A stretch of DNA of 64,000 nt from Escherichia coli (GTDB lineage: Bacteria; Pseudomonadota; Gammaproteobacteria; Enterobacterales; Enterobacteriaceae): NCBI RefSeq assembly GCF_001677475.2, contig NZ_CP015229.1; one strand, written 5' to 3'. Positions 55,801-61,800 of this stretch are shown here, in pieces; the stretch's first letter is position 1, and the number at the start of each line of letters is the position of its first letter. Position numbers: made by a program.

Positions 55801-58800
55801 AGCAGACATAAAATGTGCCCGTCAGTTAACTGTAACAAAGAATGATACACCGTCTGCTCTGTGATAACTGTTCATATAACCATTTCTTTATATTGCTGAA
55901 TTTACAAAAAGTCGCAGTTATTAGTCGTATTTATTCCGAATTGAAATCATCCGTCATATAAAATAAAAAAGAATAACAATAATAATCTTCTACCCTTATC
56001 AGTACCTTTACTGCTGTGCTCCAACACAGCAGTTTTTTTGATTATGCTCACATATTTTTCATCCCCACCGCACTGCACATTATAACTGTTGCTTTTCAAT
56101 TCAGGCTTTGTGCAGGTATGTCTGAATCTCCTCCGGGAGAGGTCTTCATCGTTATCAGCCCCAAAACACACCAGCGACACTGACAAAGAGCCTGCGAGTG
56201 CAGTTGCCCCGTTTTCGTTTTATGATGTATTCACCCAGTCAAATAATGAGCAAATTCAATCCATGTCAGACGGCAGAGAATCATAAAATTTAACCATCGT
56301 GCTTACATAAACAATCCGATAAAGACTTAACATACTTAAAATCGCATATTGCATAAGAATAAATAATAAGTCATCAAAAAACATCGGGCAAAACTACCGC
56401 AACTCCAGTTAAAAAGACAATATATTAATCCAGCGACCTCATTTATTATTCAGAAATGCTTAACAATAAGATATTTCCTGTTATTCCTTTATGGAGATCG
56501 GGTAACTGCTCCATGCCAGTCTTGTTGAATGGCTCAAAAAATAAGAGAATAATTCATAACATATATTGTAATTCAGGCTCGGTTATTTCGAATTGAATAC
56601 TTGCATTAAAATCTGATAAAAAATTCGTCATAACAACAACATTCTCTTCTGCATGTGCCATAACCTGCCGTAACAACCCGGCAGGTTTTTTTATTGAATA
56701 AATTTCCGGTTTCTTCCACCATCGCACCGGCCAGGCGACTATGAGGGGACAACGCCGCGCTCCGTTAACGCAGTAAACCCCGGTGTGTATCGTTTTTGAT
56801 TATCCCCGCACACTCGCGCAGAGGAGTCTCCCTGTCGGGCTGCGGTCTCTGTTAATACGGGAATACGGCGACAATACCGCGCATGGATAATAAGGTCGCT
56901 CAACACACTGGCTGTAATGCAGCCGATACCATGCGGCATTTAGCGGCATTCATCGTACACTCAACGGTTAGCTCTTCATTCGTGGCATTCACCTGAAAGA
57001 TCCGGGAGTGTAATTGCGTACATTTACCACTGAACGAACCTTCAACAAGAACACGACCACGCTGCAAAATACGGAACAGAATTGTTCCCTGAAAAGGCTT
57101 TACGGTTACCAGTAATTTCTTCATGCATTCTCCGGATAACAAAAATACTAGTTAATACACTGAGTGCGGATATATTCCTGCGCCCCTTCCAGCTGCTTCT
57201 GCATCATCATCAACCGCTCTCTGAGAGTGAAATAATCCCGTTCAACTGTGTCTGCCAGTCGGGGGCCGGTTGCATTATCCACGCCGGAGGTGCCGGTGGC
57301 TTCACGCACGGTACCGGAGCAGGTGGCGTTGATCCGCAGGCGCTTACGACCAGCGGCAACATCAGCACGCAGAGTTTCATTTTCAGCTCTCGCATCGGCT
57401 AATTCCCTCGAGTATCTGGCATCAAGTGCAGCGACATCACGCTGGCGTATCTGCATATCAGTAATTGTCGCGTTCGCCAGCTCCAGCTCTCTGACTTTTT
57501 TATCGCGCTGCGCTTTGTAGGTGATGGCGTTATCGCGGTAATGATTCAGCCCCAGACCAAGCGCACCACAGGCTACCAGCAGGACAATAATCACCACACA
57601 CAGAACACGGTTCATATCCCCCTCACCCCAGCATCCCCGACGAAGACAACATCATCCAGCCTAAGAGCAACCAGCATTAGTGAAAATGAAATGCCGACGA
57701 TTACACAGAGGATCTTCGCCAGCGTTATGAGCTTGTCTGACATGCTTAATCCTCTTCACGATTTCAACGCAATGACCAGTTTTGCCAGCCCATACAGCAT
57801 CGGAGACACAGCAATACCGACCGCCACCCACTTAATAGCAAAAGCCAGCGCTCTGCTGATGTCATCAGTTACAGGCGCTTTCAGTTCAAGGCCGTTTTTC
57901 ATAGTCAACCTCAACAGAATTCGTTTATACTTTTCCATGTTCTCCCTTGCCTTATCCAAGGTCAGAAACACAAAACCCCGCTTGCTGCCAACAAACGGGG
58001 TTTTACTTTTATTCACTTAGGTTTTGCCAGTTCGCAGGATTTCGTGTTATCCGTCCGCGTTGGTCAACGTCATTTTTCAGCAAAATATTCTGCTTATCTG
58101 TCGATTCCCCAGCACGCCAGCGCGCTCTCCTGGTCACGACGGGATATCTGACCGTAACAGTTGTTTGAGCGGATACGGCAGTCTCTGCCACCGTCCTTAA
58201 TCCACCAGCGAATCGCTTCACACGCTCCCCTGCGATCGCCTGCATTAATTCGTTTATAAAACGTCGACGGGAAACACTTACCGGGGCCAATGTTATACGG
58301 GCAGAATGACGCGATCCCCGCTTTCTGGGGTTCAGTCAGTGGCACTTTGATGTTTTTCGCCACCCATGCCAGCGCCTTATCACGTTCAATGGCGTTAACC
58401 CGGTCGCATTTTTCCTTTGACAGCTTCATGCCAGGAATAACAGGCTTACCATCCACCCGGGTGGCTCCACGGCAGATGGTCCAGATCCCCGCACCATCAC
58501 GGTATGCCGTGGTGTGGTTACCTTCCTTTTCATCCAGAAACTGGTCGAGGATTTCAGGCGCAGGCGCAACTGCGGCAATCAGCGCCAGAACGGCAGCCGA
58601 CAGACCGTATTTGATTTTGGTGTTCATGGATATTTATCAGGATTTATCGGTTCCGAATCCCTGGATATGTTAAGTCTTCAGCCTGCCAGTGGTGGGCACT
58701 GGTGTTTTACCTGATGGCTGAAATATATCTGACAATTCCCGTCGAGGATTTAGCAATGTATAACGATGAACATAAATATACCGCCTGCATGCAGGCCATG

Positions 58801-61800
58801 AATGAACAATTTAAATCAGCATTCCTTAAACTCATTCAGCAAAACCACGAAGCAGTAAAATCCATTCAGGCTGAGCCGTATGGACACCTCACACCACCAA
58901 CTCTCGACATTATGTCCAGAATATTAACACCAGCCATGCTTCTACGTCTGAAAGACAATATAAATGACTGGTTAAACGAAGAATTAAACTACCTTGAATG
59001 TGAGTGGGATCATCATTACGCCAAATCACAAAAAGAACGCATCTTCCGTCGATTATCCGGCAACAGATAACGAGCCAGCTTATATACGTCCTTTAAGATA
59101 AGTCAGTCCTGGATGAAACCAGTAAGCCGGCACTTTTTTAAAGGGCGGATTATCAAAATCACGAAGAAGAGCCTCCCGCACAACTGCATCCTTGTCCGCA
59201 CCACTGGCCAGCGCTTCAATCTCAGCAGCTACCTGCAGATATCCCATGCAACGACCAATGCGCTTCATTAGTCCCTGCTTTTTATTGTTCTTCAGGTAAT
59301 CAATGGCAAATTCAATGAGCGCCTCACTGTGCTGGTGCGATGCTGGTGTTACTTTTCCATCTTCACGGATCGTGATATTCCAGTCATCGCTTGTCACAAT
59401 AAAAGATGGCCGATTATCCCCCCATTCCTGGTCTTTATCCGGTGCAGACGCAATAAAATAACGTTTATTGCCTTCCTCTCCGGCACTTTTAACTGTAATG
59501 GAGTACTTTTCTGACAATGCGGTCGGTAAAAACTTTTCCTGCAAAATCTTCGCAAAGGTCCTGCGAGCAATTTTGATGCAATCATCGTAAAACGCTGCTT
59601 CCTGCTCATCGCGGCGTTTTTTTTCATCTTCAGAAACCATCAGCACCGACAGTTTTTTATTCAGTTCAGTGATTTCATTTTCCAGGCAACTTATGCGCTG
59701 ATTCATTTCTTCATGGTTCATCGTCTACTCTCCCCGCGCCGCCTTACGCCGGTCTTCTTTAATTTTGAAATACAGGTTCGTCAGGTACGTCAGCAGACCA
59801 AACAGCAGACTCCCCAGCACGCCTATTGCCACCCACTGGGACGGAGAGACTTTGTCCAGCAGCTGCAGTAACCAGTATCCCGTCCCCACCGCTGACGTGG
59901 TGTATGACACACCTGTTGTGATTTTTTCCATCTGGTACATACCCCGTCTCCCGTTATCCGGAAGCTGACAACAATAAAAAAGCCACCCGTTAATTACTGA
60001 TGGCTCTGATGCATAAACGTCATCATTCCTGACCGTTATGATTGACAATGGTTATCATTTTTATATAAAAATACTCCCGATATGTGTTACATATCATTTC
60101 TCCACGGGGAATATCCCCACGCCAGCGTCAGACTCGTTTTCCCGTTCTCTTCTGTGCTGGCGTTTTTTTTATTATGATGTCGGTACATTTATCTCCAGCA
60201 CCAGGCTTTCAATCTCAACACCATACGCGGAATTTTTGGGCGTAAAAAATCCCCTCCGGTGAGGGGATTTGCTTATGTAAACATTTACACTGCTTACCTG
60301 CATGGTGCCGGGTGCCTCCCGGTGAATTCAGTATCAGCACCTGAATCCGCAATTATCCCATATACCTACTTGCTGATTGCCCCTCCGCACAGGGGGATTC
60401 ACCATGCGAGATTTTTTTAACAAATGCTCAGTCTGACAGGCAACTGTCAACTGACTGAATAGTGACACGGATTACACTTGTTACCCACATACCACGAATC
60501 AGGTTATTCTTCAGTCATTATTAAACTGCACTTCAGCAAATCCAGAGCCTGATTCACAGGTATTGGATTTGATTGTTACGGTCATTCCTGTTAACTGTGC
60601 ACTTTGTAACAACGGCTGCAAATTCCACCGGTTAGTCCAGTATTCTTTCCCGTCAACCTTTACAGTAAATGTGTTATCCCCATTATATTTGGAAAACTCA
60701 ATTTTACCTTTAGCACAATCCGCCGCCATTGCATTAACAGAAACCAATGCAAATAAAACCGCCATAAACATCTTCTTCATACTTAACTCCTTTCATTCAC
60801 CCGTTGTATATAATGACTGAGACTTTCTGTTCAGAAAGGCTGCTGCTGTATTACTTTCCCATAATGTATTGTTTATTTTTATAACTGGCCTGTCGCCACT
60901 TATCTGACATTTTGGTTGCATCTCTTCATTCACGTAGCGAACCGAACGCGCCCCCTGATGATGGCAATTCAGAATAACCGCTACAGTACCCAGTATTGCT
61001 GATATATTATTAAAGGATATTCTCCCCACTCTGACACCATCCTCTCCCCGATACTCCGGAAGCACATTGCTGATTCTCCCCCAGTTCAGAGTGAGGTCCA
61101 CGTCTTCCGGCGTCATCGTATAAACAGGAGCAGTTTCAGACAGTGCCAGACGAAATTCTCTCTGTATTTGCCTGAACCGTAAGGCTTCTGCTGTAACAGT
61201 GACAAAACGCAGAACTGCTCTGGATGCATCTCTGGTCATTGTATTACCACTGAACTCCATTAACGCCAGATATGATGAAACCAGTGAGTGACGACTGATT
61301 TGCATTCCGGAACGTTCCAGCGCTGCGACACGTTGCAGCGTGGTATAACTGCTGTCCGTTGTCATGGAAACAGTTGTCACACCGGGCACTGATATATGTG
61401 TAAAATCTGAAAAACGGTAGAAAGTATTTGTGGCCGTATTAACGAACCCGGCCACATATAAATTATTTTGCTCAATAATCAGACGAAGATGGTCAAAACG
61501 CGCCTCATAGATATCAAGCCCTCGGATATCCACAGAAATATAACTACCCGGTGGAGTATGATTAATAACAGATACCGATGTAGCCCCCTGAGATATATGC
61601 TCAAGAGGGGTCGATATTTCTGTCCGTATACTATTTAACGAAGATACATAAGTTTGTTGAGTCGAAAAGTCTATCGTAAATTCCCGGGAATAGGATACCG
61701 AAGAAAAGCCCAGTAACAGGCACAGTACCCATTTAAACAATATACACTTCATATACAGGTATTCCTTTTGGCTGAAGTAATCAGCACCAGACCCGGCGCA

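Follow-up and report, generated by a model that had tools for sequence, protein, structure and literature searches.

The 64,000-nucleotide stretch of Escherichia coli contig NZ_CP015229.1 analysed here (the window) carries a prophage of the Stx2 type, whose late operon lies on the minus strand throughout and whose lysis cassette holds two further genes between the pinholin gene S and the endolysin gene R. The S-R distance is 1097 bp and is filled by a gene for a 213-amino-acid (aa) protein on the late strand and a convergent gene for a 104-aa protein. Our data identify this pair as conserved, uncharacterised, moron-like cargo of the late operon; it is not an exceptional insertion, a family orphan, an obligate pair or a demonstrated defence system. 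The slot between S and R and its two anchors comprise the following features.

59725-59940, minus strand: S, a class II (phage-21-type) pinholin of 71 aa with dual start MYQM; upstream anchor of the slot, not cargo.
59080-59721, minus strand: 213-aa cargo gene, a form of the YdfR family without DUF1327 (phrog_1085), assigned from the open reading frame (ORF) and the phrog_1085 match.
59530-59721, minus strand: predicted N-terminal helical hairpin/coiled coil, residues 1-64 of the 213-aa protein (AlphaFold2 (AF2) model, tblastn).
59083-59424, minus strand: conserved C-terminal domain (C-domain), residues 100-213 of the 213-aa protein, modelled by AF2 with a predicted local distance difference test score (pLDDT) of 79-94.
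59071-59079, no strand: 9-bp spacer between the convergent stop codons, with no room for a terminator on either strand.
58756-59070, plus strand: 104-aa antisense cargo gene (phrog_1853) of 105 codons including the stop, assigned from the ORF and a profile match.
58745-58749, plus strand: GAGGA Shine-Dalgarno sequence of the 104-aa gene, 7 nt before the ATG, read from the sequence.
58637-59079, no strand: antisense cassette of about 440 bp (net gain about 415 bp), R-side boundary approximate, from alignment of loci with and without it.
58628-58755, plus strand: 128-nt region between the R start and the start of the 104-aa gene, with weak sigma-70 candidates.
58094-58627, minus strand: R, endolysin of 177 aa with an N-terminus of the signal-arrest-release (SAR) type; downstream anchor of the slot, not cargo.

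On re-reading, the coordinates of S, R and both ORFs, the ATG and ribosome-binding site placements and the 9-bp stop spacing given in a preliminary description of this DNA were all exact; the small gene likewise kept its frame and coordinates, while its product is 104 aa long and not 105, the 105 codons including the stop. The ATG of the 213-aa gene stands 3 nt past the S stop, with GGAG 8 nt upstream. S matches phrog_20 and phrog_9876 (holin), and its homologues carry PF04971 and the name 'class II holin family' in NCBI's prokaryotic genome annotation pipeline (PGAP). R matches phrog_7 (endolysin), has homologues with PF00959, and has a hydrophobic, Ala/Gly-rich N-terminus which, together with PMC8136144, suggests that it is a SAR endolysin.

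Both ORFs are real protein-coding genes under purifying selection. In its own frame the 104-aa gene has a ratio of nonsynonymous to synonymous substitution rates (dN/dS) of 0.27-0.47, compared with 0.8-2.4 in four of the five alternative frames; the remaining one, the wobble-sharing antisense frame, gives 0.43-0.62 and is not open. The 213-aa gene has a dN/dS of 0.30. Alleles at 85, 68, 47, 42 and 23% identity all keep the 104-aa frame open, both ORFs are called by PGAP in the listed complete E. coli genomes with the full region, and each exact protein is recorded on approximately 970-990 contigs. At least 80% of the region is present in 91 complete E. coli genomes; part of it is matched in about 950 of 5426, mostly the C-domain segment only, and C-domain genes or parts of the region occur in ST131, 55989 and many Shiga toxin-producing E. 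coli. The pair is low-GC cargo and forms a compositional island like stx, with 40% GC in the 104-aa gene and 44% in the 213-aa gene, against 54% in S, R and Rz and 55.5% in the late region. A discrete insertion relative to related genomes and a base composition unlike that of the neighbours are both found here, and the moron layout proposed in the preliminary description stands in these two respects: a discrete antisense insertion and low-GC cargo (40-44% versus 54%).

The larger protein, for which the preliminary description recognised no family, is homologous to the C-terminal two-thirds of long YdfR-family proteins. It matches phrog_1085 (296 positions) with an E-value of 2e-101, covering only positions 117-296, after the DUF1327 part; 99% of it aligns with the 296-aa forms at 60% identity, and over its residues 67-213 it shares 81% identity with residues 122-268 of phage 86 gp05 ('YdfR family protein'). 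Homology to the long forms thus spans coiled coil and C-domain at 60-81% identity, while a Pfam scan of the protein gave no match, including to DUF1327 (PF07041), by which the YdfR family is defined. Its homologues fall into two groups, one of 185-221 aa and one of 268-333 aa with an added N-terminal DUF1327/YdfR domain (PF07041). Residues 1-62 are common to slot genes of Stx2_499, PhiR12 and 2H10, which have other C-termini there (tblastn), and the N-terminal hairpin region also matches phrog_36381, 15975 and 2091. Judged by sequence, the 213-aa protein is a mosaic, DUF1327-less form of the modular YdfR-family late proteins.

Intact YdfR-family ORFs are also present in 55989 (268 aa; locus L008, 1953-2759, minus strand) and in ST131 (297 aa; L009, 2500-3393, minus strand), where RefSeq/PGAP marks them as pseudogenes ('missing C-terminus') and gives no annotation to the C-domain part. 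Since the ORFs are intact, we reject the pseudogene status and regard the label as an annotation artefact, which a spread sample suggests may affect several hundred complete genomes.

The earlier label 'coiled-coil protein' fits residues 1-64, modelled by AF2 as helices 3-27 and 31-64, a hairpin that probably serves oligomerisation. It does not fit residues 100-213, which follow an unstructured linker and are predicted with confidence to form a separate mixed domain, about 115 aa long and built of three strands and four helices. This domain carries the motifs MKR[IL]GRxMG[YL]LQVAAEIEA and DFDNPPFK..W..PG..YLK.R; R157 is invariant, H131, Q163, E167, K195, W201 and Y208 are nearly so, and its distant homologues are 29-46% identical. 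Kyte-Doolittle hydropathy over 19 residues peaks at 0.76 in the 213-aa protein and at 0.94 in the 104-aa protein, with no window above 1.3, and both are predicted to be soluble, near-neutral, cytoplasmic proteins lacking a membrane segment.

An occupied slot is the rule in cassettes of this type. In a census of IMG/VR anchored on R, which yielded 77 loci with this S/R pair, S and R were adjacent in 3 and the slot was occupied in the other 74, almost always by a YdfR-family gene. The insertion between S and R, a wording of the preliminary description that suggests an exception, is therefore exceptional only in comparison with lambda and phage 21. A comparable arrangement is seen in the Qin prophage of E. 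coli K-12, with the gene order essQ-ydfR-rrrQ. Slot contents were as follows.

DUF1327-only gene: about 33 loci.
Coiled coil plus C-domain, no antisense gene: 12 loci.
DUF1327 plus C-domain, mostly with coiled coil, no antisense gene: 9 loci.
C-domain form plus small antisense gene: 13 loci.
Unrelated, unannotated antisense ORF of 210-233 aa: 8 loci.
Extra weak DUF1327-like gene: 3 loci.

Slots of other types carry cargo of their own. In the Stx2_499 type (L004, 2035-2736, minus strand; 8 of the 77 loci), the antisense ORF of 210-233 aa has a GGAG ribosome-binding site and matches nothing in PHROG, Pfam, NCBIfam or PADLOC; the annotated forward gene of 161/162 aa reads into it and so was probably truncated by the insertion. 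The PhiR12 type (L005, 1943-2203, minus strand) has an 86-aa antisense gene, matching phrog_2572 and annotated 'DUF1823 containing', which is convergent with a DUF1327 plus coiled-coil gene and unrelated to the 104-aa family. Remote homology among the three antisense cargo families was rejected (hhalign probability below 1%). Three loci with slots of 1232-1316 bp (L049, L075 and L087) have a second forward gene after the coiled-coil plus C-domain gene, with 33% identity to DUF1327.

The 104-aa protein matches phrog_1853 (function unassigned) over residues 1-103 with an E-value of 1.5e-45, and the AF2 model of it is a five-helix bundle (pLDDT 85, predicted template modelling score 0.78). Its family comprises 42 protein clusters, nearly all from E. 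coli and with one Shigella boydii member. Cassette bounds came from aligning loci with the small gene against loci that lack it (ST131, L009; Stx2_95, L003): about 440 bp take the place of a 36-nt spacer between the stop of the C-domain gene and the ATG of R, which puts the 104-aa gene on a discrete insertion. The GAGGA is kept in alleles of the window and phage-86 types, and more divergent alleles have a weaker GAG/GAAG there.

Scanning revealed no terminator after the 104-aa gene and none between the convergent stops, so that its transcription has to continue antisense into the 213-aa gene. A terminator-like hairpin at 58681-58704 was dropped, as it folds like shuffled sequence (z = -0.3) and its T-run is not conserved with other cargos. 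The idea that the roughly 80 nt beside R form a promoter platform specific to antisense cargos was rejected because the first 60 nt or so also occur in BP-4795, which has no antisense gene.

The notion that the pair might travel as a unit is borne out by convergent pairs in five distant lineages (L099, L101, L147, L262/263 and L266), at least three of them elsewhere in the late operon, upstream of a different holin. Identity to the proteins of the window is 29-46% for the forward and 23-50% for the small proteins of these lineages; a hidden Markov model built from E. coli sequences alone recovers the distant small proteins with E = 2e-44 to 5e-10, and the small protein of L099 also matches phrog_1853 (E 1e-33). 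The pair of L147 and L262/263 is flanked by Q-HicBA and by a different holin type, the holin gene there being next to the lysozyme gene; L099 has the same upstream neighbours on a contig that ends before the holin, and the contigs of L101 and L266 are too short for placing. Sampling of the distant clade in IMG/VR covered only one locus, and these contexts were taken from individual loci. Retention of the pair beside another holin type shows that it moved as a unit between two late-operon positions, and in view of its recurrence in distantly related prophages the two genes probably work together. Among the 80 IMG/VR loci with the small gene, the C-domain gene convergently abuts it in 54, and the 3' ends range from a 33-nt overlap to a 21-nt gap in every pair examined.

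The distant clade, which is probably Salmonella-like, also carries an antisense HicA/HicB toxin-antitoxin pair between the Q antiterminator gene and the YdfR-family gene (L147, 4600-5237; L262, 1627-2281; L264; L265). A strong late-strand intrinsic terminator follows the convergent pair of L147, before the holin, and the L099 pair has a matching terminator.

These patterns could alternatively reflect independent morons in a shared insertion hot spot, with unrelated functions and an adjacency due to linkage, which we regard as unlikely but serious. Each gene is found without the other, alleles are shuffled at the gene junction, and unrelated antisense genes occupy the same position (phrog_2572 in PhiR12, the Stx2_499-type ORF and a DUF1883 gene in L265), all as such a hot spot would predict. 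It accounts less readily for a pair retained in five lineages at 23-50% identity, also after relocation beside another holin type, since retention through divergence and relocation in mosaic genomes is hard to explain without selection for co-inheritance. Furthermore, the sampled small genes stood beside a C-domain gene or, when alone, were still in the S-R slot where the contig allowed this to be told; in the L011 type a short remnant of the start of the forward gene is still present.

The explanation that we tentatively favour, and that falls somewhat short of probable, is a two-gene accessory module: a late effector and a lysogen-expressed antagonist, kept mutually exclusive by convergent transcription. 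The 213-aa gene, with its ATG 3 nt past the S stop and a Shine-Dalgarno sequence, is read as part of the Q-dependent late transcript, immediately after the pinholin gene. The 104-aa protein would be made in the lysogen from a weak promoter of its own, and the two products would be functionally coupled. Because convergent transcription without a terminator makes expression mutually exclusive, the role of the 104-aa protein would be to antagonise or regulate the C-domain protein, not to serve it as a cofactor. Strong Q-driven late transcription would silence the small gene, whose read-through may in turn yield antisense RNA that damps leaky late transcripts over the 213-aa gene and S.

Several observations weigh against this two-gene module. 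The window allele has no convincing promoter for the 104-aa gene: no scanned site reached 9/12 and the best scored 7-8/12, the sigma-70 candidates being TTTATC-17-TATGTT at 58643-58671 (7/12) and TTTACC-19-GACAAT at 58706-58736; two diverged alleles have a perfect TATAAT approximately 75 nt upstream of the small-gene ATG. Nor is the pair obligate: the small gene is missing beside about two-thirds of the C-domain genes of E. coli and beside three further C-domain genes of distant loci, and it stands alone in at least two lineages, in slots of the L011 and L015 types. The L011 type, with 21-22 near-identical loci, has only about 260 nt between the small gene and S. In L007 the forward protein is 92% identical to that of the window and the small protein only 47%, an allele shuffling that counts against tight co-evolution; long-term adjacency could in part be simple linkage within a small recombining module.

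In the L015-L018 prophages, where the small gene is alone in the slot, a gene for a 263-aa Enterotoxin_a/Scabin-like ADP-ribosyltransferase and a 110-aa gene lie upstream of the holin (approximately 3413-4554 in L015), at the place where Stx phages have stx.

The near-universal presence of YdfR-family genes in cassettes of this type (slot filled in 74 of 77), and their staying beside lysis genes even with other holin types, would also be consistent with a late-phase accessory role, in which the YdfR-family protein tunes late-transcript stability or lysis timing and the small gene acts mainly in antisense to restrain leaky S and SAR endolysin; an antisense transcript from it necessarily overlaps the late mRNA. 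The family's only experimental lead is YdfR of Qin, a DUF1327 protein reported to bind the catalytic half of RNase E and to co-purify with RNA (PMC13232886). However, the 213-aa protein lacks DUF1327, the domain of the reported RNase E contact, and has no membrane segment that could bring it to the pinholin or the SAR endolysin. The 104-aa ORF, moreover, is under protein-level purifying selection and so is not only a source of antisense RNA. We consider this role distinctly unlikely, also because lysis by phage 21 and lambda needs no such gene.

Searches for function returned little beyond the families themselves. Neither protein matched Pfam or NCBIfam, profile searches of the PDB were empty, and Foldseek against AFDB50 retrieved only family members, from E. 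coli, Shigella and Salmonella; an exhaustive HMMER search among 1.84 billion representatives found only 37 relatives. Among the papers searched, none dealt with the cargo of the S-R slot, and ydfR is absent from the main text of the envelope-screen paper cited for it. Only S, R and Rz match lysis PHROGs, and neither cargo protein has a lysis-family match, a transmembrane or SAR segment or a lipoprotein signal; neither is a holin, antiholin, endolysin or spanin. Profile, Pfam, PDB and fold searches thus agree with the preliminary description that neither protein is lysis-like or belongs to a characterised family, and the homology of the 213-aa protein to a known lysis-cassette component such as an antiholin, which it had proposed to look for, was not found.

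The same searches bear on the defence, abortive-infection and toxin-antitoxin roles suggested earlier, that is, on a prophage-expressed system of this kind, superinfection exclusion included. Three observations would suit such a system: lysogen-expressed morons, lambda bor for one, typically lie antisense within a late operon, the small protein has diverged faster than its neighbour, and the small gene persists alone. Against it, no PADLOC-DB 2.0 family was matched even at E <= 1 by either protein, by their phage 86 homologues or by the alternative antisense cargos, and neither protein gave a hit to a toxin, antitoxin, nuclease, NTPase or sensor fold. The genes are not the co-directional bicistronic operon of type II toxin-antitoxin systems, being convergent in every pair examined, and they show neither obligate co-occurrence nor a recognisable toxin or antitoxin fold; the larger gene, lying in the late transcript, would not be made in a healthy lysogen. 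The searches thus gave no positive evidence for a system of this kind, which we consider the least probable of the explanations weighed here.

Only slightly less doubtful is a late-effector and immunity module, in which the antisense-encoded small protein would bind and neutralise the C-domain effector. Lambdoid phages of E. coli and Salmonella could need or exploit this effector at the end of the cycle, and the small protein could shield the lysogen from leaky effector until convergent transcription ends immunity on induction. A lone small gene, as in the L011 and L015 types, could then sabotage superinfecting relatives that depend on the effector.

Comparison with known systems places the pair near several of them and within none. 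YdfR of K-12 Qin and the long YdfR-family proteins (phrog_1085, 268-333 aa) occupy the same slot, with a class II holin gene directly ahead of them and the endolysin gene behind, and the long forms share the coiled coil and C-domain with the 213-aa protein. In contrast, the latter lacks DUF1327, the family-defining domain with reported RNase E/RNA binding, while K-12 YdfR is DUF1327 only and lacks the C-domain. The 104-aa gene resembles morons of the lambda bor type in its discrete insertion, lower GC than the neighbours and orientation opposite to the late operon, and in phage 86 bor itself is annotated as antisense. The Bor protein, a lipoprotein, is secreted and has a role in serum resistance, whereas the 104-aa protein is predicted to be cytoplasmic, belongs to no known family and is paired with a conserved convergent partner. 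Type II toxin-antitoxin pairs such as HicAB are likewise adjacent genes for small cytoplasmic proteins kept through divergence, one of which is sometimes lost; here, however, the genes are convergent, show no recognised fold and are often single, and the larger one is transcribed only with the late genes. Finally, P1 LydB, P2 LysA/LysB and the T4 antiholin RI are extra genes in or beside the holin-endolysin unit and expressed with it. They act at or in the membrane on the holin, whereas the 213-aa and 104-aa proteins have no predicted membrane segment and no sequence or fold similarity to them, and S here already encodes its own antiholin via the dual start.

The module lies approximately 0.8-1.4 kb downstream of stxB, in the transcript controlling Shiga-toxin release. 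An effect of the pair on lysis timing, late-mRNA stability or phage-phage exclusion would carry over to toxin output and to competition between prophages in pathogenic E. coli. A conserved convergent pair with separable parts offers a testable hypothesis for two proteins that are dark in both structure and function. Other annotated genes of the late operon are the following.

60793-61752, minus strand: stxA.
60511-60780, minus strand: stxB.
57148-57615, minus strand: Rz/Rz1.

Only 570 bp (59941-60510) separate stxB from the S start. Missing from this gap are the nanS-p/yjhS esterase gene of roughly 1.9 kb and the small DUF1378 and DUF826 genes, which part stxB from S in phage 86 and most Stx2a phages; the gap contains a full-length Rfam match to the small RNA family STnc100 at 60238-60436 (minus strand; 147.6 bits, compared with a gathering score of 47). 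On the other side of the cassette, the approximately 1.9 kb at 55263-57148, up to Rz, have no ORF of at least 100 aa except 57082-57402, on the opposite strand and overlapping Rz. A 181-aa ORF ending at 55263 is, by position and sequence, a candidate terminase small subunit, and a 70-aa plus-strand ORF at 55652-55864 resembles DUF3950-type small genes at the same position in related loci. An rRNA operon occupies the left end of the window (1-4720) and the transfer-messenger RNA gene ssrA lies at 29864-30226, which makes integration of the prophage near ssrA a possibility. Directly upstream of stxA are genes for tRNA-Arg(tct) and tRNA-Met(cat) (61843-62096), as is usual in Stx phages.

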